Positions 44,395 through 64,000 of a DNA stretch of 64,000 bases are shown here, piece after piece. Made by a program: the position numbers and the translations under genes. Under the pieces are notes generated by a model. It ran no database searches, had not been told where the DNA came from, and saw only the letters and a program-made list of their open reading frames with translations. Source of the stretch: an uncultured Gemmatimonadales bacterium. Its GTDB lineage: Bacteria; Gemmatimonadota; Gemmatimonadetes; Longimicrobiales; Gaopeijiaceae. How positions within the stretch are numbered: position 1 is the first letter of the stretch; every line of letters begins with the position of its first letter. The DNA lies in NCBI GenBank assembly GCA_963809895.1, contig CAWELD010000003.1:3168001-3232000 (forward strand), given 5' to 3'.

Positions 44395-44484
44395 GCGAAG
44401 GACTCACGGAGTGGCCGCGACCAGCGCATCTCACCCACGCCCGGGTTAGATTGCCACTGATCGCGCACTCGACGGAGGGGCGCC

Positions 44485-44691
44485 ATGGCGGAAGTGACAG
44501 TGTCGACCAGGTACCGGATCGTAATCCCCAAAGCGGTACGGGAGACGCTCGGGGTCGAGATCGGCCAGAAGCTCCAGGCCTTCGCGGGCCCACGTCAGAT
44601 CATCCTCGTCCCCGTGGAGCCCCTACCCGTCATGAGGGGATTCCTGAGCAGGCTCGAGAACGACTTCGACCGCGCACTCGATGAAGGGTGA
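44485..44691 (+). CDS. AbrB/MazE-type antitoxin-like protein (no adjacent toxin)
   Basis: VSTRYRIVIPKAVRETLG; SD GGAGG. Confidence 0.75.
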   Translation: MAEVTVSTRYRIVIPKAVRETLGVEIGQKLQAFAGPRQIILVPVEPLPVMRGFLSRLENDFDRALDEG

Positions 44692-44959
44692 CGGCAGCGC
44701 GGGCCCGCCCCTCAGACGGTGGCAAGTGGCCTGCGTCATCGAGGGCGTAGCACTGATGATCGGGCTCGTGATGCCCGTCACGCCCAGTAAGACCGGATCC
44801 GATTGGAGCATGGCGCAGCTTGTCTTCCCGGAGCCCTCGTACCTCCAGGAGGTGCTCGTCTACTTCGTGCTGACGAACCTTCTGATCGTCGCGTTCGTCG
44901 GAACCCTGTGGCTGTTCGTCCGGCTCGAGCAGCGGCGCCCGAAGGCCTCGGGGGATTAG
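44681..44959 (+). CDS. Small two-TM membrane protein
   Basis: Two hydrophobic segments. Confidence 0.55.
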   Translation: MKGDGSAGPPLRRWQVACVIEGVALMIGLVMPVTPSKTGSDWSMAQLVFPEPSYLQEVLVYFVLTNLLIVAFVGTLWLFVRLEQRRPKASGD

Positions 44960-45137
44960 GGGCCGATCCTCGCCGCCCAACCCACCGAGGCCCAAGCATT
45001 GCGGCTAGGGTGTGCCCGGTGCAATATGAAGTCGGGGGATTCACGAGGCGCAGAGGCCAGGGCCCGAAGAGGACCTAAGGCCCGACCACACCTTCGGAAA
45101 TCTCCGGGCGATGGGCGAACTCGTGCCAGACACACCC

Positions 45138-45163
45138 AACGCCCATAAGGAGTTATGCAAAAT
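45138..45163 (+). other. attI-like primary recombination site
   Basis: CCCATAAGGAG|TTATGC: first GTTA of the array with no upstream attC hairpin; pairs with cassette-1 inverse core GCATAAC. Confidence 0.65.
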
Positions 45164-45465
45164 GCGGTGGTGCGGCCTGGGTCGCTGGCGCCGGACGAAG
45201 CCTTCGGAAAAGGGCGAGCGATCGGGTCGAGTGACCGCCTCCCCAGCCCCTCTTCATGGGTTGGCACCCTTCCCTTTCCCGACCCATTCTAAGCCGGCCA
45301 TGGCTTCGATCCCCGAGCTCCGGCAGGGGCTGGGTTCGGCTACCATCGTCGCCCCGGGGTCCAACTCAGCCTTCGAGAGGCAACGGCTTCCTCCGGCCTA
45401 CGGCTCCTCGCCGGGCTGCGGTACGTGGGCCATCGGTGATCACTCCGCAGCACCTCACGCACTCT
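45153..45465. repeat. ORF-less structured cassette body, copy 1
   Basis: Homologous to 45627-45934 and 50253-50559; nested inverted repeats. Confidence 0.85.
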
Positions 45466-45632
45466 GCATAACAACAAGGCTTCCGGCTCCGCGCCCGCCG
45501 TGCACGGCGCGGCCTCCGCGCAACCGGCCCACGACCAAGTGGAAGACCCTGGCGAAGCCGGCAGCAACTCAGCGTAACCTGCGAGTCGAACGATTGGACG
45601 GGGGCCGGTTCGGAAGCCCCGTCACGTTATGC
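45466..45632 (+). repeat. attC-like site 1 (family A)
   Basis: GCATAAC-aacaa-GGCTTCCG...CGGAAGCC-ccgtcac-GTTATGC. Confidence 0.88.
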
Positions 45633-45934
45633 AAAATGCGTGGTGCGGCCTGGGTCGCTGGCGCCGGACGAAGCCTTCGGAAAAGGGCGAGCAATCGGGT
45701 CAGATGACCGCCTCCCCAGCCCCTCTTCATGGGTGGATGCCCTTCCCTTTCCCGGCCCATTCTAAGCCGGCCATGGCTTCGATTCCCGAGCTCCGGCAAG
45801 GGGCTGAGATCGGCTACCGTCGTCGCCCTGGGGTCCAACTCAGCCCTCGGCGGCCCGGCTTCCTCCGGCCTACACTCCTCGCCAGGCTGCGGTACATGGG
45901 CCATCGATGTCACTCCGCAGCACCCACGCACTCT
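45627..45934. repeat. ORF-less structured cassette body, copy 2
   Basis: Tandem, diverged copy of cassette 1. Confidence 0.85.
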
Positions 45935-46100
45935 GCATAACAACAACGCTTCCGGCTCCGCGCCACGCCTGAACGGCGCGGCCTCCGCGCAACCGGCCCA
46001 CGAGCAGGTGGAAGACCCTGGCGGAGCCGGCAGCAATCAGCGTAACCTGCGAGTCGAACGATTGGACGGGGGCCGGTTCGGAAGCCCCGACACGTTATCG
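45935..46100 (+). repeat. attC-like site 2 (family A)
   Basis: GCATAAC...GCTTCCG...CGGAAGC...GTTATCG. Confidence 0.88.
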
Positions 46101-46526: not shown

Positions 46527-46756
46527 CTGTCAAGGTATGTAGCGCGAAGTGTGGGGAGCCCGGGGCGGCTTCGACGATGAATCCTGCTGATATTCGATGG
46601 TTGAGCCCGTCAGGGCCCAGAGCATCAGGAGACGGATTCGTCGGGAGCTGGCTGGAGTCTATTCGCGGGGATTGGGCGCTGGGCCGTACCCCGTAACGTT
46701 TTCGGGCGTTCTCCTATCGTGCCCCGAGACTCCCCAATGTTCGCTCGCTGGTTGAA
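46527..46756 (-). ncRNA. Putative bridge/seek RNA-encoding non-coding end of the IS
   Basis: Non-coding region 3' of transposase; contains AACGTTA (target match) and ATATCAG (circle-junction match). Confidence 0.6.
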
Positions 46757-47906
46757 TCAGGCGGCGCGGCTCACCTCCTGAAGCTGAGAGACATCCACGT
46801 CGCGGAGGACGGCCCAGAGGAAGCCGACCATCTCGCGGGCGACGGCCGTGGCGGCCACCGGCCTGGGCTTCTTGGCGGCGAGTCGATGGAAGAGAGTGTA
46901 GAGGCGATGCTGACACTTCCAGGCGTGCTGAATGACGGCGGGATCCTGGCCGCGTTGACGGCGGCGGAGGGACGCGCCGACGGCCGGGCGCTTCCGATAG
47001 TGCCATGCAGCCTGGATCAGGATATGGCGGCACACGTGTGTTGCCGGCCTTGGTGATGGCGCCCAGGCGTCGCCGCTCTCCCGAGGAGTGCTCGCTGGGG
47101 ATGAGGCCGACGTAGGCCATGAGCTGGCGCGGACTCTCGAAGCGGCGAACGTCGCCGAGCTCGGTAGCGAGGACCATGGCGGCCTGGGTCTTGAAGCCGC
47201 GGAAGCAGCGGAGGCGGTCGACCAGGGGCTTGTAGCGCGGCGTGAGGGCGAGGTCCTCGATGCGACGGTCCAGCTCGTCGCGTCGCTGGAGCTTGTACTC
47301 GAGCAGCGCGAGGTACTCCGAGAGCACGATCTGGTCTTCGTCGGCGAAGGTGCCGGGGTCGAGCATGTGGCGGATCCAGTCGAGGTGGCGCACGGTCCAG
47401 TGGGTGCCCTCGCGATAGATGAAGCCTCGGCGGCGCATGAACTTGAGGATATAGTGGCGCGATTTGACGATCTCGCGCTGGAAGGTCTCGCGGCAGCGGA
47501 CCAAGTCGCGCACCCGCTCGTCGGCCTCGGTGGGCACGTGAATGAGGACGAGGCGGTCGTCACGGAAGTCACGAGCGATCTTGATGGCGTCGCGGCGGTC
47601 GGACTTGCGGTGCTCGCCCGGCCGCGCGCGGGATCAGCGAGGGCGCGGCCAGATCGCAGGGCGACGCCCCAGTCGACGAGGGAGCGCTGGAGCACGTAAC
47701 CCGCACCCGAGGCCTCGTAGCAGGCGCGCACGGACGCCCTCGGCTTGGAGCCGCTGGAAGTAGCGGCGGACTTTGCGGAGATCGTAGGGGAGGCGGTCGA
47801 CGCGCATGGGCTCCGGATCACGGTCCCGGAACACGGCCGCAGTGACGGAATCCTTGTGGACGTCGAGGCCGACCCAGAAGATTGGGGCACGATGGGATGA
47901 TGACAT
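46757..47906 (-). pseudogene. IS110 family transposase with several frameshifts
   Basis: VGLDVHKD, CYEASG, RFESPRQLMAYVGLIPSEHSSG, ITKAGN, AVARE spread over three frames. Confidence 0.88.
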
Positions 47907-48071
47907 GGGGCTGGTCTCCTGTCGGTTGCGGCTCGACCGCCGCATGTGGCGCTGGCGTTGCCTCTCACGCGACGCTAATCCACGACATCCGCGGGAGGCC
48001 AGCCCTTCCATCGTGTCTATGTGCAATCGCGGGGACGAGAGGTCGCGCGAAGCGGAGCGTTCGACCTGGCG

Positions 48072-50094: not shown

Positions 50095-50258
50095 GCTTAA
50101 CTGCGGGCTTCCGGCTCCGCGCCGCTGAACGCGGCGCTCCGTCCCAACTGGCCGCGGCCGTCAGCGGAAGGGTCTGGCGGTCAGGCTGCGGGCGAACGTA
50201 CTCTGGCCACCTGAAGCACTGCTGACGGGGCCAGTTCGGAAGCCCTGACACGTTATGC
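50095..50258 (+). repeat. attC-like site 5 (family A)
   Basis: GCTTAAC...GGCTTCCG...CGGAAGCC...GTTATGC. Confidence 0.87.
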
Positions 50259-50559
50259 CCAATGTGGAGGCGCGTCGTGATCGCGGGCACCGGAGGAAGC
50301 CTTCGATAGGTCGCGAGCGAGAAGGTCAGTTGACCGCCTCCCCAGCCCCTCTTCAGGGGTTGGCACCCTTCCCTTTCCCGACCCCTTGAGCCAGCCATGG
50401 CTTCGATCCTCGAGCTCCGGCTTGGGGCTGGGTTCGGCTACCATCGTCGCCCCGGCGCGCAACCCAGCCTTCGAGAAGCAAGGGCTTCCTCCGGTTTCGG
50501 CTCGTCGCCGGGCTGCGGTACGCGGGCGATCCCGACCACTTCCCAGCGCCTCCCCACAG
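50253..50559. repeat. ORF-less structured cassette body, copy 3
   Basis: More diverged homolog with compensatory substitutions. Confidence 0.85.
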
Positions 50560-50729
50560 GCATAACAACAAGGCTTCCGGCTCCGCGCCACGCCGTTGAA
50601 CGGCGCGGCGCTCCGTCCCAACCGTCCCACGACCAAGCGGAGGACCCTGGCGGAACCGGCTGCTCTCAGCGTACCCTGCGAGTCGAACGGTTGGACGGGG
50701 GCCGGTTCGGAAGCCCCTTCACGTTAGGC
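50560..50729 (+). repeat. attC-like site 6 (family A)
   Basis: GCATAAC-aacaa-GGCTTCCG...CGGAAGCC-ccttcac-GTTAGGC. Confidence 0.88.
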
Positions 50730-50772
50730 GTAATGTTCCGTGCCAAGTTATCCATTGTGACGGAGACAACTG

Positions 50773-52338
50773 GTGGTGCTTGAGCCCTTGCTAATTCCAA
50801 ACGTATCTTTGGAACCCCTTCGCGTTCTGTCAACATACGAGGGGGGCTTTGGTCGGGTTTACATCGTGGAGGCAAGCGACGGAGAGCGTTATGCCCTCAA
50901 GACACTGAAATGGGAGCTTGGCCAAGACCGTGCCACCCTACGCGACGAAGCAAGCAAGCTCGCCGACGTCACGAATCATGCAAATGTCGTCGAGATCATT
51001 GGTGTCTTCTGGCATCGAGACGATCCCTTCATCGGTATGCCATACTATCCCGCGACACTTCGCACCTACTTCTCCCAAGCCCACCTCTCCCTCGACCGCC
51101 TGACTAGTGCCATTGCCGATGTTGCCCGAGGTCTCGCTCATCTCCATGACCTTGGCGTGCTACACTTGGATCTCAAACCTGAGAACGTTCTTGCGTCTGC
51201 AGACGGCCACTTGGCCATTTCGGACTTCGGCTTATCTGCCGCCCTACCGCCGGTTACAGCCTCCAGCAAACATCGGCAGCTCTTCATGTCTGGTGTCACT
51301 GGCACCTTGGCGTATATGAGTCCCGAACACTTCGTCACGAGGCGTCTTAGCGCGAAGTCCGACGTCTTCGCACTTGGCACCATGATGTTTGAGGGGCTGA
51401 CGGGTCGTCATCCATTCCTTGCCGGATCACCAGAGGAAACGGTGCAGCATATCCTTCTGGTGAACCCGGCCTTTCAGCTTGCCGAGCGGCTTCGGCTGCC
51501 TGGGGTCTTGCGGGAACTTTGCCTGGCCTGCCTATCTAAGGCTCCGGAGCAGCGTCCGACCGCTCGCGAGGTGGCAACCTGTCTCCAAGGAAGGACCGGC
51601 CTTCCCACAGGGGCCAAGACACAAGACGTGGACCCATCTCGTCTGGTGAACAAGGCCAGCACGCTTCGCGCTGTGGGCAGGGTGGACGAGGCGCGCCAGA
51701 TACTTGAGGACTGTCTTCGCCACCACCCGTGGTATCTTTCGGCGCTCATCGGCCTTGCTTACACCCACTGGGACCAACACAACATACCGGAGGCGGCAGC
51801 AGTACTTGAGACTGCCCTTGAAGCCGAGGAGTGGATTGGGACCCCCGAGGAGATGGGAAACCTGCTCACCAATCTATCGTTCTACTATCTCAGTAGTGAT
51901 CCGGAGAGCAGCATACGTTTTGCCCGGCATGCCGCGGCCATCAATGAGAATGATTGGCAGGCGCTCGGCAATCTAGCCGAGGCATGCCGCCTCCTTGGCT
52001 CCCGTCGTCAGGGTTTGTTGGAGGAGGGACTGGATGTCTGTCGTCGCGCGATGAAGATCAACCCTGATGACTTGAAGCTGAAGGTGACTTACGGAGGTCT
52101 GCTGCTGGAGGCCAGTAATGCTGTCGAACTGTGGCCATTTGTTACGTCTCTGATCAACACTCATGGTGCTGATGACGTGCCGCTCCGCTTCTTGCTAATC
52201 GCTACCTTGGCATTCTACCGCAAGTTCGAAGACGCCGAACGGTGGCTGGCGCCTATGCGTCAGTACTCCAACCTACAACCGGTAGTGCAGGCAGCAGAGG
52301 AGGAGATCGCTCGGCGAAAGGGGGATGGACGCGTGTGA
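50773..52338 (+). CDS. Cassette Ser/Thr protein kinase with C-terminal TPRs
   Basis: GGFGRVY, ALK, HLDLKPEN, DFG, YMSPE, SDVFALG; helical repeats. Confidence 0.9.
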   Translation: MVLEPLLIPNVSLEPLRVLSTYEGGFGRVYIVEASDGERYALKTLKWELGQDRATLRDEASKLADVTNHANVVEIIGVFWHRDDPFIGMPYYPATLRTYFSQAHLSLDRLTSAIADVARGLAHLHDLGVLHLDLKPENVLASADGHLAISDFGLSAALPPVTASSKHRQLFMSGVTGTLAYMSPEHFVTRRLSAKSDVFALGTMMFEGLTGRHPFLAGSPEETVQHILLVNPAFQLAERLRLPGVLRELCLACLSKAPEQRPTAREVATCLQGRTGLPTGAKTQDVDPSRLVNKASTLRAVGRVDEARQILEDCLRHHPWYLSALIGLAYTHWDQHNIPEAAAVLETALEAEEWIGTPEEMGNLLTNLSFYYLSSDPESSIRFARHAAAINENDWQALGNLAEACRLLGSRRQGLLEEGLDVCRRAMKINPDDLKLKVTYGGLLLEASNAVELWPFVTSLINTHGADDVPLRFLLIATLAFYRKFEDAERWLAPMRQYSNLQPVVQAAEEEIARRKGDGRV

Positions 52339-52409
52339 TGTCGATATCATCCGAGCGCAAGGCGGTGTCGCGATCATCATGCTAACGCCGACCAGGCACT
52401 GAACACTAC

Positions 52410-52567
52410 GCCTAACAAATGCGTTGCGCCTACGCCGCGCAAGCGCGGCTCCGGAGAACACCGGCGCAGCGGGGCTGGTGGCCCGCAGGAAGCGGACGGA
52501 GTGATCGCCTGGAGCGCACCGTTCGCAGGTTGTGATGCGCCGACGTCGCAACTCTTGAACGTTAAGT
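52410..52567 (+). repeat. attC-like site 7 (family B variant)
   Basis: GCCTAAC...GTTGCG...CGCAAC-tcttgaac-GTTAAGT. Confidence 0.85.
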
Positions 52568-52655
52568 GTCATGCCGCGGCTGGCCGAACAAACGCCGAAA
52601 GGCTATCTTTCCCAAACAGAACGTAACCGTCCCCACTTCCGTCGAGAGGATCGAA

Positions 52656-53447
52656 TTGGCTGATCGGAGCGACATCGAGTGGACCGACGCTACGTGGAAC
52701 CCTACGACGGGTTGCACAAAGGTCTCACGCGGGTGTGACAACTGCTACGCCGAGGCCTTGGCACATCGCCTTCTTTCTGACACCTATCGTCGTCGACTCC
52801 CGGTAGTCCAGTCCCCTGAGAATCTGGCTGATCCGTTTGCAGTTCGGGTCTGGCCAGACCGTCTAGGAATTCCCCGGTCGTGGAAGGCGCCGCGGCGGGT
52901 GTTCGTGAATTCCATGTCAGATCTGTTCCACGCAGACGTGCCGGAACTCTTCGTTAGGCGGTGCTTCGAGGCGATGCTCGAAGCGGACTGGCATGAGTAC
53001 CAGATCCTGACAAAGAGGCCGTCGCGGGCTGCCAGATTCGTCGCTCGCAACTCTGATCTCTTCGAGCAGAACGGACTTCCAGCCCATATCTGGATCGGAA
53101 CGTCGGTGGAGGATCAGGCCGTTTCCCATCGCATCCGACACCTCCTCGCGGTGCCGGCAGCCGTACGATTCCTCAGTTGTGAGCCGCTTATCGGGGCTCT
53201 GTCCATTGCTGGCGATCTGGAGGAGCCGGACCCTGGAGTCCACTGGGTTATCGCGGGTGGCGAGAGCGGTGTCGGGGCGCGTCCAATGGAGCTGAGTTGG
53301 GCCCGCCGCCTCCGAGATGAGTGTGACGCGCTAGGGATCCCGTTTTTCTTCAAGCAGTGGGGAGGTAGGACCCCCAAGGCCGGAGGACGGGAACTCGATG
53401 GACGAACGTGGGACGAGTATCCCGAGAGTCGGCTTGCGTCGAAGTAG
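52656..53447 (+). CDS. Phage Gp37/Gp68 (DUF5131) radical-SAM-like protein
   Basis: IEWTDATWNPTTGCTKVSRGCDNCYAE, FVNSMSDLFH, GGESG, FFKQWGG. Confidence 0.92.
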   Translation: MADRSDIEWTDATWNPTTGCTKVSRGCDNCYAEALAHRLLSDTYRRRLPVVQSPENLADPFAVRVWPDRLGIPRSWKAPRRVFVNSMSDLFHADVPELFVRRCFEAMLEADWHEYQILTKRPSRAARFVARNSDLFEQNGLPAHIWIGTSVEDQAVSHRIRHLLAVPAAVRFLSCEPLIGALSIAGDLEEPDPGVHWVIAGGESGVGARPMELSWARRLRDECDALGIPFFFKQWGGRTPKAGGRELDGRTWDEYPESRLASK

Positions 53448-53454
53448 ATCAATC

Positions 53455-54548
53455 ATGGCGCAAGACGATGGAACGCTCTGGCCGCGGGGACCTCACACGG
53501 AGGGGAAGCACCTGGTCCTGAAGAACTACCTCGACGCATGGCTGCCAATCCTCGGTAGTTGGAACGGCCGCATCCTCTTCGTCGACGGGTTCGCGGGACC
53601 GGGCGAATACGAAGACGGAGAGGACGGATCTCCGATAATCGCTCTAAAGGCCTTCATCGACCATGCGCACAAGAGGGTCATTCGCGGCGAAGTGGCGTTC
53701 TTCTTTGTCGAGGAGGATGAGGCGCGTGCCACTCATCTCCGTGGGCGTGTGGAAGCGCTCAAGCCCGACCTGCCAGAAAACGCCAGGATTGAGATCCGCA
53801 CGGATCGATTCGAAGAGTCGATGAACGCGGTGCTGGACGAGATCGAAGATCGGGGTAAGAGACTCGCCCCATCGTTGGTGATGGCCGATCCTTTCGGTGT
53901 GTCGGGCACGCCGATGAGCGTGATGGAGCGCATTCTCGGGTATCCGACCTGCGAGCTTTACATCTCGTTCATGTACGAGAGCATCAATCGCTTCCTTGGC
54001 ACCGAGGAATTTGCTCCCCACCTCGATGGTCTCTTCGGCACAGATGAGTGGAGAGCCGGACTCGATTTGGCTGGTGAGGAAAGAAAACGGCTCCTGTACG
54101 CGCTTTACGCGCGCCGCCTTAAGGACATCGGAGCCGAGCATGTGGTGCACTTCGACTTGTATGAGGGCAATCGGCTGGTGTATGCCATCTTCTTCGCGAC
54201 GCGGCACTTGAAGGGGTGCGACCTGATGAAGAAGGCGATCTGGAAGGTCGCACCGTCTGGGGACTTCGCGTTTCGCGGTGCCAGGAATGATCAGCTGGTG
54301 CTTGGAGTCGACAACCCGGATTTTTCCCGCTGAGGGCGCTACTCGCGGAGCGGTTCCGCGGGCAGGAATGGGTGGAGATCGACGACGTCCTCGAGTTCAT
54401 GGCGTCTGACGAGGTGGAGTATCACACGGGCCACCTGAAGAAGCAGGTTCTGAAGCCAATGGAGATCGAAGGTCAGATCGAAGTGGACGAGTCGAGTCGT
54501 AATCGCAAGAAGACCTACCCGAGCGGAAGCCGGATCCGCTTCATTTAG
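53455..54548 (+). CDS. Three-Cys-motif partner protein (TcmP-like), frameshift near 54325
   Basis: HTEGKH, DGFAGPG, DPFG, MKKAIWK; C-terminus continues in another frame after GATTTTTCCC. Confidence 0.8.
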
Positions 54549-54586: not shown

Positions 54587-54682
54587 ACTTAACTCAAGGT
54601 TGCCGCCTCCGTTCGCCTTCGCTCACTTCGGTGAATCACGGCGCCTCCTGGGCGCCGCGCCGGCAACCCCGACACGTTAACC
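54587..54682 (+). repeat. attC-like site 8 (family B)
   Basis: ACTTAAC-tcaag-GTTGCCG...CGGCAAC-cccgacac-GTTAACC. Confidence 0.88.
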
Positions 54683-54745
54683 GACATGGCTCAAGGCCTG
54701 CAACCTGAAAGGAGGCAGTGGCATGCGACACGCAAAGGCCTTCCG

Positions 54746-55765
54746 ATGACCGCGAAATCTAAGGGGCTGGATGAGAGTGGCTTCCAGAACTTGGGGATCA
54801 TCTACTCGTTATTGTTTTTTCTCTTGGGGATCGCCCTCCTCGTGGGAAGCACGTATGTGACACATGAGCTCGTGTCGCATCTGTTGAGGGATATGGGGCT
54901 CGCGGCGTTAGTCGGCCTCTATCTCATGTGGACACTCGAGAGACTGAACAAACGCCGAGTACAGGCCGAGGTGCAGGAGTATATCGAAAGCGTCGGGGAA
55001 AACTTTATAAGTACCGTCTATGGGCGCTTCCTGCCGCCCGCTCTGTTCGACGTGATCCGCCGTTCCCTGTTCGACCAGAGCTTCTTAAGGACGGTATATA
55101 GCATTGACCTCTCTCTACAGAACCTCACATCAGCCGCGATCGATTCTGCGTCAGGCCCGGTGCGAGACATGCTAAGCGCATTCGTCGCGAGAGCTGACGC
55201 TGAAAGCTTGGATCGCCAGGACCTCATAGTCTTGCAGATGACCCTGTATTACGAGGTCCGGAACGTCGCCGCGGCAGCAGATGACTACGCTGTACGGTTG
55301 GAGATTCCGAAACCCTTCGGCAGAGAATACGAGGGTCTGGCCGGCATAACATCGGTGAGTATAGACGGACGGGAGATGATCAGTGAAGCGCCGTACTGGG
55401 GTGAGGAGTCCGAAGGACGCAACCCGAATATGGTCTTTTTCTCGGAGGGCGTGAGAATGAAGCCCGATCAGACGATCCGGGTGACACTTGAAGCATACTC
55501 TGTCCGGCGAATGGATGACTGGGAGCCGTGGCAGACCATGGTCCCTTCGCACGGCATGACGGTGAGAGCAAGGGATCTCGATGGTGACAAGGACATCACG
55601 TTAAGCTTGGACGCGCCCCTGTTGGAAGGAGAGGCGACATACGCGGACAAGGACCAACGGACCAACCGGGCAGTGTTGATGGTTTCCCAGTACTTGCTAC
55701 CGTTTCAGGGGGTGACGATTAGTTGGAGGAGACGGCGGGACGCGAAGGAGGATGGGGTGGAGTAG
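54746..55765 (+). CDS. Cassette protein with two N-terminal TM helices and a beta-rich soluble domain
   Basis: Long ORF filling cassette 9. Confidence 0.75.
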   Translation: MTAKSKGLDESGFQNLGIIYSLLFFLLGIALLVGSTYVTHELVSHLLRDMGLAALVGLYLMWTLERLNKRRVQAEVQEYIESVGENFISTVYGRFLPPALFDVIRRSLFDQSFLRTVYSIDLSLQNLTSAAIDSASGPVRDMLSAFVARADAESLDRQDLIVLQMTLYYEVRNVAAAADDYAVRLEIPKPFGREYEGLAGITSVSIDGREMISEAPYWGEESEGRNPNMVFFSEGVRMKPDQTIRVTLEAYSVRRMDDWEPWQTMVPSHGMTVRARDLDGDKDITLSLDAPLLEGEATYADKDQRTNRAVLMVSQYLLPFQGVTISWRRRRDAKEDGVE

Positions 55766-55824
55766 TAGTGGGGGGACCTTGGGCGGGGGTGTGAGAGCGT
55801 GGAAGTGGTGAGCTGCGCCACGTC

Positions 55825-55842
55825 GGTTAAAAGGAGTTAAGT
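55825..55842 (+). other. Minimal attI-like cassette junction
   Basis: GGTTAA-AAGGAG-TTAAGT with no hairpin. Confidence 0.75.
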
Positions 55843-55910
55843 GCCACTGCCATTGGAACGGTCTCCGTACGGGGCTCACTGGAAACCTAGAGCTGGAAGA
55901 GGGTGCGGCG

Positions 55911-57653
55911 ATGCGAATCGAGAGCGTTGAGATCGAGGGATTTAGGTCGTTCGGGCTCGACCCTGTCTTGATCCGCTTCCCGGAGATTGACGTGCCGATA
56001 TCAGTCATCGGGCACAACAACTCGGGGAAGAGCAACTTCCTCGCCGCGCTGCTGCACGGCACCGCCACGCGGCCGTCCTACCCGAACAACTTCAGTCTGG
56101 ATGACCTTTTTGGACGGGATGAAGGGACGATCTGCAACATCGACGTGCGGATCTCGCCACCCCTACTGAGTGCGAATGCCTTCAACAACGTGACCGAGAT
56201 GCCTTCGCTTCGGCTTCGGATACAATGCGAGGCGGGCGTGATCGAAACGTCCCATTACTGCTTCGATCCTGACGGGAAGCAGGTCTACAACGTTCGGTCG
56301 GTCAAGCGAAGTAAGAGCAAGGTCTATTCGGAGGACGAAAAGGAGACGCTGACGACGTACGCGCGCACCGGCGCGGAGCAGGTGCACAAATGGCGCTCCA
56401 AGATCCCCATCTACTACATCGGTCCGGAGACGCTGTATAAGGAGCTGACTCCGTCCCGGTTCAGTCTGCTGGGGAAGGTGATCGACTCGTTCCGGGCCGA
56501 GTTTGAGGACCCGGAGAGCACGATGGAGGCGGCGGACGGCGTGGTGGACTCCCACATCGGGCGACCGCGTGCCGAGATCTACGAACAGGCGATGCGATAC
56601 ATCGAGGAGCACGTTCTCCCGGCATCTGGCTTTCGGGCTTTCGTAGATGAAGTTGAGGCGATCGTCCGGGAGCAACTCGCCGTAGACGAGGAGTCGTTCG
56701 GGGTTCGATTCAGACCACCAGTTGCGGACGCGTTCTTCAAGAACCTTCGGTTTCACATCAGGGAGAATGAGCATCGACCGTTGCTCCCGATCGACCGGAT
56801 GGGGTCCGGCTTCGTCTCTCTGTTTGTGGTGGCCCTACTGCGAGCCCTCGTCGACACCGACGAGGGTGGAAAGATCTTCTTGCTCGAAGAGCCCGAGACC
56901 TATCTCCACGAGCACTACCAGGACTACTTCTACGAAGTGCTGTGCGAGCTCGCTGAGTCAAACCAGGTGGTCTACACGACTCACTCGAAGAAATTCGTGA
57001 ACGTCTTCCGGCCGGAGTCCATCATTCGACTTAGCGCGACTCCCGACGGGACTGTCCCCGTGACGGCGGGGGGCGGGGCCGTAGACTTCCCGGACGGCGT
57101 TGACGGCTACGAGCTGAAGAGCCCCGAGGACTTCCCGAAGTTTCTTTGTACCCTGGAGCCGAATCTCGGGAACACAGTGTTCGCTTCACGCGTCGTTGTG
57201 GTAGAGGGCCCGCACGACCTCTTGGCCTACCGAACCGCCCTCGACGGATCCGTCGAATGGGGACTTCGGAACACCGCGGTGGTCAGTGCGTGGGGTAAGG
57301 ACACCGTCGCGGCGCTAGTTGAACTCTGCCACGCCTTCGAAGTACCTGTCTTCGCGATCCACGACCGAGATCTTCCGCAAGAGATCAGTGACGACGATCC
57401 GGTTGATTCCCTGACTCCCGGTCAGAAAGCCCAGCGGACCAAGAATGCACGGATCGCGGGCTTGTCGGGACCCAATCACGTCCACCAGAATCGACCGAAT
57501 CTCGAGGGCGTCCTGGGGATCCCACCGGAGGAGAAGTCCGCCGAAGCCGTCTTCGGCGCGTTAGCTGGGAAGGATCTCCACGAGGTTCGGACCGAGTTCC
57601 CTGGGCTGATTCCCGACGCTCTCCTCGAGTTTCTTCAAGTACCGACCGATTAG
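55911..57653 (+). CDS. OLD family ATP-dependent endonuclease (ABC ATPase + TOPRIM)
   Basis: GHNNSGKS, MGSG, LLEEPE, TTHS, VEGPHD, HDRD. Confidence 0.9.
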   Translation: MRIESVEIEGFRSFGLDPVLIRFPEIDVPISVIGHNNSGKSNFLAALLHGTATRPSYPNNFSLDDLFGRDEGTICNIDVRISPPLLSANAFNNVTEMPSLRLRIQCEAGVIETSHYCFDPDGKQVYNVRSVKRSKSKVYSEDEKETLTTYARTGAEQVHKWRSKIPIYYIGPETLYKELTPSRFSLLGKVIDSFRAEFEDPESTMEAADGVVDSHIGRPRAEIYEQAMRYIEEHVLPASGFRAFVDEVEAIVREQLAVDEESFGVRFRPPVADAFFKNLRFHIRENEHRPLLPIDRMGSGFVSLFVVALLRALVDTDEGGKIFLLEEPETYLHEHYQDYFYEVLCELAESNQVVYTTHSKKFVNVFRPESIIRLSATPDGTVPVTAGGGAVDFPDGVDGYELKSPEDFPKFLCTLEPNLGNTVFASRVVVVEGPHDLLAYRTALDGSVEWGLRNTAVVSAWGKDTVAALVELCHAFEVPVFAIHDRDLPQEISDDDPVDSLTPGQKAQRTKNARIAGLSGPNHVHQNRPNLEGVLGIPPEEKSAEAVFGALAGKDLHEVRTEFPGLIPDALLEFLQVPTD

Positions 57654-57686
57654 GGTGTGCTCGCGTGCGCCCGAGAGGCGATTCAT

Positions 57687-58232
57687 ATGAGGATTAGGTC
57701 CCTCAAAGGCCTTCTCGCGAAGTACGATGCGGCCCCAGGACGGGTGCGTGCCTACTTCCCTCACTTCAAGCAACTCGCTGAAGACTTCCCGTATGACGTA
57801 GTCCTTGCCTACGTGTTTGGTCAGGTCGAGCTAGCGCAGAACATGACGCTGTATTGTGGGATCGTGAAGCTGCATCGCGCCGATGCGAGCTTGGCTCGAA
57901 AGGTGGTCGACTCCCACCACATGACCCGACCGGGGTTCAGGGAGAAGGTCAAGGTGGTTTACGGCACGCCAATCCCCGCCGATATCACCGCGAAACTCGA
58001 CAGGGCCGAGAAGACGCGAGACAAAGTGATGCACGGGAAGGCCTGTACGGACGCTGAGAAGCGGAACGCGTTGGGCTACGTTCTAGAGTATGCCGAGGAC
58101 TTGAATGCCCACCTAGAGGAGTTGGCCGGCATTCAGCCGTTCGGGGACCTTCGTGGCTTCAAGGGACGAGCCAAGAGTCTCGATAAGAAAACGACCAGGT
58201 GGATCCTGAAGGGTATGGGTTTCGGCGCATGA
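57687..58232 (+). CDS. Putative HEPN-like protein
   Basis: All-helical character, RDKVMH (Rx4H) motif. Confidence 0.5.
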   Translation: MRIRSLKGLLAKYDAAPGRVRAYFPHFKQLAEDFPYDVVLAYVFGQVELAQNMTLYCGIVKLHRADASLARKVVDSHHMTRPGFREKVKVVYGTPIPADITAKLDRAEKTRDKVMHGKACTDAEKRNALGYVLEYAEDLNAHLEELAGIQPFGDLRGFKGRAKSLDKKTTRWILKGMGFGA

Positions 58233-58240
58233 GCAGCGTC

Positions 58241-58399
58241 ACTTAACTGAGTGTTGCCGCCTTCGTTCGCTTCGCTCACTTCGGTGAATCACGGCCCCGA
58301 ACTCTTCTGGCTGTTGGAGCAGTAGCTGGAGCGTGAGCTGACCGGTGTGCCAGGCCGGCTCGGTTTTCGGGCCGCGCCGGCAACACAATCACGTTATAT
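58241..58399 (+). repeat. attC-like site 10 (family B)
   Basis: ACTTAAC...GTTGCCG...CGGCAAC-acaatcac-GTTATAT. Confidence 0.88.
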
Positions 58400-58482
58400 G
58401 AAACTCGGAACGAGCATGTGGAGGGGACGGACCTGAGGGTGTATACTCTGGTGAACCTCATGTTGTCCGGGAGGGCTGAGCC

Positions 58483-58713
58483 ATGAACGACGAGTCTACA
58501 AAGGATGAGGTGGTCGAGGAGTTGAACCGATTGGCCGAAGCCGATCGGCGTCGGGTCCTGGACTACGCTCGTTCACTCGGCCGCCGCGTTTCGAAGGGCG
58601 TGGCCGGCGACTCACTTCTGTCGCTGGCTGGGTCGTTACCAGAGGCGGAGGCATCGGCCATGGAGGCGGCCATTGAGGATGGGTGTGAGCGGGTGAACCT
58701 CGGTGCCTGGTAG
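58483..58713 (+). CDS. Putative antitoxin (VapB-like)
   Basis: Small ORF overlapping a PIN toxin start. Confidence 0.65.
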   Translation: MNDESTKDEVVEELNRLAEADRRRVLDYARSLGRRVSKGVAGDSLLSLAGSLPEAEASAMEAAIEDGCERVNLGAW

Positions 58714-59221
58714 GGCACTTCTCGATACGAGTGCCGTCGTCGGGCTCCTGCGCGGCGACAAGTCTGCAGTGAAGAAGGTCGGATCTCTGGACGAGGCATT
58801 CACGAGCATCGTGGTGATCGGCGAACTCCTTTACGGAGCTCGCCTCTCGACGGGTGCAGAAACGAACCTGGCGCTGGTTGCCTCGTTTGCGTCGTCGATC
58901 ACCGTCCTCGTTGCCAAGGAACTGGACGTGTCTCTATCGAAGGTGCCGGAACTTAGGGCAAGGTTCGAGCGGGCCCGCGACATTGTGGACGCGGCAACCC
59001 CCGCAGACGCCTTCCGGAGAGGTGTCCGCTATTCGATCCAGGACGCCCTCGAGGAAGGTCTGGGGTCCCCCGAGGCGATCGAACGCCTGGTCGTACAGAT
59101 TTGCTACAGGGCTGCCGATCTGAGTGTGTTGTTGGACTCGGAGGGGAGTGCGTTGTCCGACTACTCCGCCGAGCTCCGTGTCGAATCGGATGTCTCAGGT
59201 CTTGGCGGCGAGGGTATGTAA
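58703..59221 (+). pseudogene. Truncated VapC/PIN toxin fused to an unrelated ORF tail
   Basis: LLDTS and VIGELLYG present; second half lacks PIN C-terminal acidic motifs. Confidence 0.65.
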
Positions 59222-59253
59222 TGGCGGGCTGAGCCTTGGGGCGGGCCAACAGC

Positions 59254-59271
59254 AGATAAAAGGAGCTATCT
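59254..59271 (+). other. Second minimal attI-like junction (GTT mutated to GCT)
   Basis: AGATAA-AAGGAG-CTATCT; right part complements the inverse core CAGATAAC at 60150. Confidence 0.65.
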
Positions 59272-59334
59272 GAAGCTGGCTTCGCAACCCGCACTCACGC
59301 GTCGCGACGGGAACTGACTGGGAGAGTCTGGCGT

Positions 59335-59358
59335 GAGTATACTAGTATCGGTATACTC
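59335..59358. promoter_or_regulatory. Palindromic operator / -10 region of TA operon
   Basis: GAGTATAC-N8-GTATACTC containing TATACT. Confidence 0.6.
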
Positions 59359-59387
59359 GTTCATGAGCAGACGCGACGCCCAAGCCG

Positions 59388-59732
59388 GTGGTCTGGCTCG
59401 GATCGGCCCGATCGGACCTACGCTCGTTCCCGGAGGAGGTCCGTACAGACGTGGGCTTCGCCCTCTGGGTGGCACAACGGGGTGGACGGCCCGCCCAGGC
59501 GAAGACGCTCAAGGGAATCGTCTCCGGTGCGGGCGTGCTCGAGCTGGTCGAGCGCCGCGACGGGGACACCTATCGAGTGGTGTACACAGTACGGTTCGCG
59601 GATGCGGTGTACGTACTCCACGCATTCCAGAAGAAGTCGAAGCGCGGAATCAAGACGCCGAAGCATGAGATCGACCTGATTCGGTCGCGGCTCAAGGCCG
59701 CGGAAGAGCACTACGGTGGGAGCGGACGATGA
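59388..59732 (+). CDS. RelE/HigB-like toxin (Gp49/DUF891)
   Basis: TYRVVYTVRFADAVYVLHAFQKKSKRGIKTP. Confidence 0.88.
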   Translation: MVWLGSARSDLRSFPEEVRTDVGFALWVAQRGGRPAQAKTLKGIVSGAGVLELVERRDGDTYRVVYTVRFADAVYVLHAFQKKSKRGIKTPKHEIDLIRSRLKAAEEHYGGSGR

Positions 59733-60058
59733 CCAAGGACCAGATTGAGGAGAGTTCGGGGAACGTATTCGCGGACCTAGGTCTCGCCGAGGCGGAAGAA
59801 CTCCATACAAAGGCTCAGCTTGCGCATCGGATCGGCGAGATCGTTCGCGGTCGCCACCTCACGCAGGCCGAGGCTGCGGACGTGCTTGGTGCGACGCAGC
59901 CGATCGTCTCGAGGCTGATGCGTGGCCAGCTGCACGGATTCTCGCTAGAGCGTCTCATGCGGTTCCTCAACGCTCTGGACCGCGACGTTGAGATCGTGGT
60001 CCGGCGCCGGCCACGGAGTCGAGATCACGGCGAGACACGGGTGAAGGTCACCGGCTGA
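59729..60058 (+). CDS. XRE/HTH antitoxin (HigA-like)
   Basis: SSGNVFADLG, LTQAEAA, GFSLERL. Confidence 0.88.
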   Translation: MTKDQIEESSGNVFADLGLAEAEELHTKAQLAHRIGEIVRGRHLTQAEAADVLGATQPIVSRLMRGQLHGFSLERLMRFLNALDRDVEIVVRRRPRSRDHGETRVKVTG

Positions 60059-60150
60059 CCCGCCGGGTAACGACAGTCACCCGCTTGGAGAGACGCCCGA
60101 GTTGGGTTCGTTTAAGCCGCTCTGGTTCTCCGACCAACGAAGCCATCAAC

Positions 60151-60314
60151 AGATAACTCCAGGCTCCCGGCTCCGCACCGCTGAACGCGGCGCTCCGTCC
60201 CAACTGGCCTCGGCCGTCTCGGAAGGGGGTTTCGCATCGGCTGCGAAGGGACGTATGCTGGCCGCATGAAGCCGTGCTAACGGGGGCCAGTTCGGAAGCC
60301 CCTTCACGTTAGAC
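60151..60314 (+). repeat. attC-like site 12 (family A, close to site 5)
   Basis: AGATAAC...CGGAAGCC-ccttcac-GTTAGAC. Confidence 0.85.
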
Positions 60315-63320: not shown

Positions 63321-64000
63321 ATGAGAAGGCCCGCCGTGTCAAGCTCGGTCGCATCATAGTTCGAGTCGTGCCCTCGCCGTGCCTCCATTCGCAGTCCTGG
63401 TCGGCCGCTCGGGCCTGCTGCATGCTGGTGTCCGTCCCTGCCGGGCGCTGCAATCCCTTTGACGGTCTTGAGAGACCTGGGCCGGTAGCGCAGTCACCCG
63501 GACAGGGCGTCGAGCGCGTCTCGTGTCGTGAAGCGACCTCGTGGTCGTCGGAACCTCCGAGTGTGATCGGTGCGATTCGTGTCGGTTCAGGGGATCAGGC
63601 GGCGACCTCCGCGCCGGCCTCCGGGACCTCCGTGTCGGCGTTGTGCAGCGGCTCGTAGACCTCACCCGTGACCCAGAGTCGGTGAAGGAGCACGGCCAGT
63701 TTGCGGGCAACCGCGATGATGGCCCTCCTCTTGGCCGCCGGCCCGCCTCGTTCCGCGAGCCGGAGTCCCCAGCGTCTCAGATCGGTGTCCGGTCCGAAGG
63801 GTCCGAGGACGTAGTGGGCCGACTGCACGAGGAGGGTGCGGAGCATCCGGTCGCCGGCCTTCGTGGTCGAGAGCTCCGGACTCGACTCGCCTGACTGGTG
63901 CCGTCGAGGCACAAGCCCCAGGTAGGGGCCCACAGCCCGGCTCGTGGAGAACCGATCCGGGCTCTCGAGCGTCAGCAGGTAGGTGAGCGCCGTGAGCGTT
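63321..64000 (-). mobile_element. Second IS110 family element (partial; right end approximate)
   Basis: Transposase C-terminus, about 270 bp non-coding tail, outward TTGACA at 63342-63337. Confidence 0.8.
63595..64000 (-). CDS. IS110 family transposase, C-terminal part
   Basis: YLGLVPRRHQSG, TKAGDRMLRTLLVQSA, AVARKLAVLLH. Confidence 0.9.
   Translation of the reverse strand, partial: TLTALTYLLTLESPDRFSTSRAVGPYLGLVPRRHQSGESSPELSTTKAGDRMLRTLLVQSAHYVLGPFGPDTDLRRWGLRLAERGGPAAKRRAIIAVARKLAVLLHRLWVTGEVYEPLHNADTEVPEAGAEVAA

Follow-up and report, generated by a model that had tools for sequence, protein, structure and literature searches.

Two junctions in a chromosomal cassette array of an uncultured Gemmatimonadales bacterium lack the attC hairpin and carry a six-base motif in its place, which raises the question of what these junctions are, how they arose and which enzyme made them. 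The array lies in a stretch of 64,000 nucleotides (positions 3,168,001 to 3,232,000 of contig CAWELD010000003.1, assembly GCA_963809895.1; hereafter 'the window', in whose coordinates positions are given); it begins at ~45.1 kb, extends beyond the window end and decays after ~66 kb. Just upstream of it, and in the same orientation, is the gene for a tyrosine recombinase of 367 residues, here called P0001 (43,291–44,394, forward strand), which lacks the insertion specific to IntI integrases (I2). By every feature that sequence could test, the two junctions are delta-attI cassette junctions, each consisting of a cassette end, the last six bases of attI and the start of the next cassette, and we consider it quite likely that the adjacent insertion-less integrase joined these through top-strand exchange.

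Site 1 (55,825–55,842, forward strand) reads GGTTAA-AAGGAG-TTAAGT and comprises the end of a cassette that we call A, cut at AA|C (55,825–55,830), the hexamer (55,831–55,836) and the start of cassette B (55,837–55,842). Site 2 (59,254–59,271, forward strand) reads AGATAA-AAGGAG-CTATCT and is built in the same way from the end of cassette X (59,254–59,259), the hexamer (59,260–59,265) and the start of cassette Y, the first T of which is read as C. A preliminary description of the window had reported both as 18-bp hairpin-less sites, and both were found where it placed them: TAAAAGGAG matches twice in the window against 0.05 matches expected (none of 100 shuffles reaches two), and these are its only matches in the genome (5.33 Mb). 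Compared with shuffled sequence, folding gave z-scores of 0.41 for site 1 and −0.93 for site 2, against −3.16 for the bottom strand of the ordinary attC-like hairpin that precedes cassette A (54,587–54,682, forward strand; bottom strand −28.7 kcal/mol; top strand z −1.07). Neither short site folds beyond chance and the attC hairpin is absent.

The flanks identify both sites, as far as sequence can, as cassette boundaries, with a cassette end to the left and a cassette start to the right. At site 1, complementarity to the neighbouring cassettes bears out the preliminary description: the left flank pairs with the start of cassette A (G|TT at 54,676|54,677) at 13 of 14 positions and the right flank with the end of cassette B (58,233–58,247) at 12 of 14, the pairing of cassette A start and end carrying an A/C mismatch at position 10, as in the rest of the family. 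At site 2 the right flank matches a cassette end at 11 of 14 positions and is further supported by a duplicate of cassette Y; the left flank reaches only 8 of 14 against the upstream start and has no matching start, because the preceding unit is a deletion fusion at 58,910/58,911. The geometry TAA-N6-TTA, claimed earlier for both sites, holds at site 1 alone, as site 2 reads TAA-N6-CTA. A copy of cassette Y farther down the array, beyond the window end (97.9% identical), follows a normal attC and opens with G|TTATCTG; the C at 59,266 is therefore a changed T, apparently through mutation or assembly error. Four DNA sequencing runs with small shares had no reads over either site.

On sequence grounds we take positions 45,141–45,158 (forward strand) as the attI of the array: a left arm GCCCAT, the hexamer AAGGAG (45,147–45,152) and then TTATGC, with the crossover at G45152|T45153. 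Downstream of the integrase it has the earliest G|TT for which a matching cassette end exists (319 bases farther along), and no hairpin site precedes it; its left arm resembles those of relatives' attI sites, and TAAGGAGTT, the array attI, is unique in the genome. The six bases before its G|TT are those of the two joints, as the preliminary description had proposed in calling the hexamer an attI core. The joint can moreover be resolved to the base, since the cassette end can supply only AA (the next base being C) and attI only AAGGAG (the preceding base being T), and these base-exact breakpoints recur in the window at two different upstream cassettes.

Of 303 genomes belonging to the order, 96 contain relatives of P0001. 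For a survey of their arrays we took 58 regions, selected for long contigs, out of 50 genomes; arrays were present in 26 regions of 25 genomes, amounting to 255 attC junctions and 466 kb, and two of these arrays (G337b and G362b) follow a different integrase–transposase pair. The pattern of TAA, six bases and [T/C]TA matched nine times in the 466 kb, and eight of the matches, in four genomes, were cassette joints; where the spacer had another length, the match was an attC end or was not flanked by cassettes on both sides. All eight joints are exactly six bases long, and every left flank has the C at position 10 that is typical of cassette ends in the family. Joints thus make up 8 of 263 junctions in insertion-less arrays, whereas the canonical arrays of that order have none in 138, an excess that is weak (two-sided p 0.055 per junction and 0.55 per genome).

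The claim that the hexamer tracks its own attI was supported, though not always by an exact match. It equals the local attI exactly in two of the four genomes (three joints, two in the window and one in genome G213) and differs from it by one or two bases in the other two. G213 served as a blind test, in that the joint hexamer ATGAAG was found first and the attI was afterwards read as ATGAAG; ATGAAGTTA occurs in exactly two places in that genome (4.7 Mb), the joint and the attI. Over the four genomes the summed mismatch to the own attI is 3.33, and none of 439,400 combinations of other genomes' attI sites did as well, although the pool of 27 curated sites contains kin that are not independent, so that the result is overstated. 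An earlier pool with wrong picks (G003, G127, G350, G351, G353 and G360), from which the 27 were recurated, gave the same result.

Wider searches returned little else. The pattern HTAADNNNNGTTAD, run over 201 genomes of the order, led to 50 loci that were checked, and none were cassette junctions (repeats, element ends and similar); a six-base match in a canonical array of G106 proved to be an attC end. When 175 related loci were scanned for a recurring cognate hexamer, the window's genome alone yielded joints; most of these loci hold little array. One metagenomic array has a second attI-like site deep within it, downstream of its integrase (L210:9219), with one hexamer mismatch, a similar left arm and the same cassette start, which is perhaps a longer attI copy.

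The likeness to attI might be due to chance, the sites being ordinary attC deletions or ribosome-binding sites, and we regard this as scarcely credible. AAGGAG does resemble a Shine-Dalgarno sequence, and internally deleted attC sites do exist in these arrays (in G275 and in the tail of the window's array); however, the deleted sites retain the C after AA and the joints do not, the joint length is always six, and chance would have to explain a match to the own attI that beats every one of the alternative combinations. No open reading frame of at least 70 residues starts within 14 bases of any of the eight hexamers, the first such frames after the two window hexamers beginning 74 and 67 bases on, and the hexamers ATGAAG, AGCGAG and TAGACG are not Shine-Dalgarno-like. 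The hexamer is therefore not a ribosome-binding site, in keeping with the preliminary description.

Which enzyme acted is the next question, and P0001 is most likely the one. In all three genomes with both kinds of attI, the joints resemble that of the insertion-less integrase more closely than the canonical one, and G118, a one-contig genome with two joints, has no canonical IntI. P0001 scored 210.6 bits against the integron integrase profile TIGR02249, under the cut-off of 265 and with the match in two pieces, and 227.2 against the XerA-like profile NF040815, over its cut-off of 220. Between its KG..DR and H..RHSF motifs lie 60 residues, compared with 100 in the canonical IntI of the same genome, and the region is equally short in 187 of the 188 related loci spanning it. 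Its best match in the PDB is an archaeal XerC-like recombinase (4a8e), its nearest named relative (52%) comes from a Gemmatimonadota genome, and a single-sequence AlphaFold model was uninformative (predicted local distance difference test, pLDDT, 38). Loci with an insertion-less integrase span Bacteroidota, Bacillota, archaea and others, going by record titles, and 84 of 175 loci have an attI-like G|TT site behind such an integrase, though some of these picks are wrong.

The attC sites differ in parallel with the enzyme. Of 243 sites in insertion-less arrays, 66 were unclassified, and 166 of the other 177 showed no L-arm bulge; among 138 attC sites from canonical arrays of this order, 123 are fitted by a left-arm bulge of one base. 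The outer arms of the insertion-less family reach 13–14 bases into the cassette. Their near-invariant C/A mismatch at position 10 becomes, in 221 of 243 sites (25 related arrays), a bottom-strand G.T pair, by which this family may mark the strand to be selected, and in 181 of the 243 it is the bottom strand that folds more stably. We dropped attC spacer asymmetry as a further mark of the family, as it is also present in canonical arrays of the same order. By these features the window array is integron-like (an attI beside the integrase, a G|TT crossover, tandem cassettes and attC sites that favour the bottom strand), and yet not as a canonical integron, I2 insertion and attC L-arm bulge both being missing.

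The DNA itself shows that the joints have three parts, that the hexamer is always exactly six bases long and matches the cognate attI, and that the integrase has no IntI insertion; a short series of steps would account for the joints. The enzyme would cut attI with a six-base stagger, the top strand being cut six bases to the left of the G|TT cut. A single top-strand exchange would then take place between this left cut and the R'' cut of an attC (AA|C), which would yield just such a joint and agrees with the origin at the left side of attI put forward in the preliminary description. The attC partner may be a folded top strand or a double-stranded left half; both would give the same product and are therefore indistinguishable from sequence. 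Such a misaligned single exchange, resolved by replication, would release a circle of at least one cassette closed by the short joint. The circle might re-enter at attI by either of two routes: through the short joint, where both strands could exchange because its hexamer is identical to that of attI, or through an intact attC that it carries, with no activity of the joint needed. The upstream cassette would thereby lose its hairpin and is likely to be tied to its neighbour.

The order of cassettes at site 2 bears on the route of re-entry. The unit before the joint (58,394–59,259, forward strand) is the front of a VapBC-type cassette (to 58,910) joined to the tail of cassette X (58,911–59,259); positions 58,446–58,910 are 97.2% identical to an untruncated copy of the VapBC cassette farther down the array, and the PIN domain of the fused unit is confined to residues 6–97. 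In the downstream copy Y comes before VapBC, whereas in the window the order is VapBC and X, the joint and then Y—a circular permutation, which hints at re-entry through an intact attC. The fusion point (58,900–58,915) falls at G|TT, as expected of a secondary-site deletion by an integrase. One contig of sequencing run X2 (depth 3) matches 58,913–59,246 and then continues into attC-like sequence, which fits the presence of cassette X as an ordinary cassette elsewhere.

The preliminary description had offered a second strand exchange in ordinary attI × attC recombination as a further origin, and here its proposal was not supported. P0001 lacks the I2 insertion, the L-arm bulge, which with IntI prevents a second cut, is missing from its attC sites, and the available text of PMC12901181 suggests that bulge-poor attC sites favour a double-stranded route. 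However, tracing the strands indicates that a second attC cut would fall at the L box and yield closed hairpin ends, with no joint between R'' and hexamer; the joints retain R'' exactly up to AA; and in the text of PMC4792948 available to us, the second exchange is called linearising and abortive. We judge this origin very improbable.

Several observations weigh against our preferred reading, an exchange at the left side of the local attI by the insertion-less enzyme. The hexamer matches exactly in only three of the eight joints: in G335 two joints read AGCGAG and one AGCGCG where the attI has AACGAG, and in G118 both read TAGACG where the attI has TGAACG, so that attI drift or import has to be invoked. 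Taken singly, these genomes are matched as well by 4 of 25 and 4 of 26 other attI sites, respectively, and the covariation signal therefore rests mostly on the window and G213. Three of the eight left flanks lack a matching upstream start, and 66 attC-type junctions in 23 loci from other phyla included no joint. The reciprocal product (attI left arm plus the rest of attC) was not seen in 15 integrase-proximal regions read by eye, and a re-entry duplicate is only hinted at in the window and was not seen in G213, G335 or G118. Finally, two genomes, G271 and G280, have canonical attI sites that likewise carry AAGGAG as their hexamer.

The joints of G335 and G118 lie 22–45 kb from attI and are alike within each array; ordered by distance from attI, the hexamers of G335 run AGCGCG, AGCGAG, AGCGAG and then today's AACGAG. 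No other attI with the joint hexamers was found in either genome. Further AGCGMGTTA matches in G335, like a third copy of TAGACGTTA in G118, proved not to be attI sites, so that no second attI explains these hexamers.

The last of the points above, and the inexact matches in G335 and G118, bring in another explanation: that the joints stem from a different enzyme or a different array, whether a canonical IntI working in trans or some foreign integron, and were imported with their cassettes. The window's genome does encode a canonical IntI, on contig C10 (387.8 bits), in an integron (G000:C10:600939-640000) with a co-oriented integrase, an attI of geometry TAA-AGCTCG-TTA and bulged attC sites, and the tail of the window's array contains one attC of the C10 type (window-equivalent 69,118–69,227). 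The canonical attI of G271 even reads TAA-AAGGAG-TTA and that of G280 likewise ends in AAGGAG, and the available text of PMC12901181 reports delta-attI cassettes that cross integron classes. The C10 hexamer, however, is four mismatches away from AAGGAG; the local hexamer stands in two independent joints of the window; the arms of cassette A bear the signature of the insertion-less family; the 138 attC of canonical arrays (18 regions) include no internal six-base joint; and G118 carries joints without any canonical IntI. Import of this kind strikes us as unlikely, though the strongest of the alternatives considered. A candidate joint on C10 itself, AAGCTCGTTAG at C10:632035, was rejected, as no cassette end precedes it.

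Junctions of this type are already known from integrons of classes 1 and 2, as is a proposed origin, and dual single- and double-stranded activity is known for IntI1. The text of PMC12901181 available to us counts delta-attI cassettes in class 1 integrons (96 in 1,685) and class 2 integrons (14 in 57), proposes an exchange between attI-L and attC-R'' (citing Partridge 2000), measures excision of the short sites at 4–28%, calls their origin largely unknown and cites Partridge 2000, 2002 and 2009 for these 'unusual' cassettes. An attC of blaGES-1 replaced by part of attI1 is described as not excised in the portion of PMC4670013 available. For IntI1, the available text of PMC4792948 reports cleavage of the attI1 top strand, a second strand exchange between attI sites, activity on both single- and double-stranded substrates, and L-box events in 1 of 607 attI1 × attC recombinants.

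As in class 1 and 2 integrons, attC is here replaced from R'' onward by the cognate attI core, and rarely so (8 of 263 junctions). Unlike those cassettes, ours sit in a chromosomal array, have no resistance cassettes among them and accompany an enzyme without the IntI insertion. One fixed six-base length contrasts with the eight variants, and many independent cassettes contrast with mostly one spread cassette in class 1 (blaOXA-10, 65 of 96), described in the accessible part of PMC12901181; and because the attI left arm here differs from the cassette end, the cut can be read to the base. The proposed reaction resembles the attI1 × attI1 recombination of IntI1, as reported in the available text of PMC4792948, in that the top strand would be cut at the left side of attI and both attI strands would be reactive, but that reaction joins two attI sites through a canonical IntI, whereas ours would join attI to attC through an insertion-less enzyme and is reconstructed from natural products. 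With sedentary chromosomal integrons, including that on C10, the array shares an integrase, an attI, tandem cassettes cut at G|TT and a bias towards bottom-strand folding; it differs from them in lacking the IntI insertion and the L-arm bulge and in its outer arms of 13–14 bases with the position-10 G.T pair. A literature search that had most subscription journals outside its reach found no paper on delta-attI joints in chromosomal arrays and none on arrays run by insertion-less integrases. Within the reach of that search, three features are new: a joint length fixed at six bases, a cut that can be placed to the base, and a connection with an insertion-less enzyme.

The cassettes that meet at the joints are diverse. 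Cassette A (54,677–55,830, forward strand), a single copy in the genome with its attC replaced, carries a 359-residue open reading frame (54,686–55,765) for which Pfam and NCBIfam profile searches returned no family match. Cassette B (55,837–58,393, forward strand; normal attC at 58,241–58,399) has genes for an AAA ATPase that includes an OLD-like TOPRIM domain (55,911–57,653; Pfam AAA_15, AAA_21 and OLD-like_TOPRIM) and for a 191-residue partner without a family match (57,657–58,232), which together (55,911–58,232) have the look of a defence pair. Cassette Y (59,266–60,308, forward strand; normal attC at 60,151–60,314) carries a Gp49-like toxin and an HTH_37 antitoxin, both identified with Pfam.

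Elsewhere in the array, short cassettes (~380–480 bases) without an evident gene take the first place after attI, in the G213 and G118 arrays too, and recur: three copies in the window (45,152–45,630, 45,626–46,098 and 50,252–50,735; 85–92% alike), about seven in G213 and more than eight in G118. They are possibly promoter or RNA cassettes. Cassettes at 50,773–54,333 carry a Ser/Thr kinase–TPR protein and a pair of DUF5131 and TcmP genes. Two minus-strand transposase genes (46,650–48,020 and 63,350–64,000), which we take from their general resemblance to be IS110-like, interrupt attC sites. Between integrase and attI (44,400–45,140) lie a short gene, presumably AbrB-like, and a 92-residue open reading frame; in G213 an antitoxin-like gene occupies the same place. 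The tail of the array (window-equivalent 66,000–84,000, L089) has deleted attC sites and many frameshifts, through decay or assembly error.

What makes this case interesting is the insertion-less integrase, which the preliminary description had missed. Whereas the crossover of class 1 sites is obscured by a run of A, two natural joints in this array display it to the base, and the six-base length recurs in relatives. More speculatively, and on balance we would not yet bet on it, these arrays may represent an undescribed and possibly ancestral type of integron, with an I2-less integrase, an Xer-like six-base stagger on both attI strands and a leakier choice of strand on bulge-less attC sites, the old parts of the arrays recording earlier attI cores. 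As the joint type itself is known, the surprise is moderate. The joints nevertheless tie attI, attC and insertion-less integrase together, and so provide sequence evidence that an enzyme without a domain supposedly necessary for integron recombination drives these arrays; an 18-base candidate minimal site with a defined cut may bear on how single-strand recombination arose from Xer-like ancestors.

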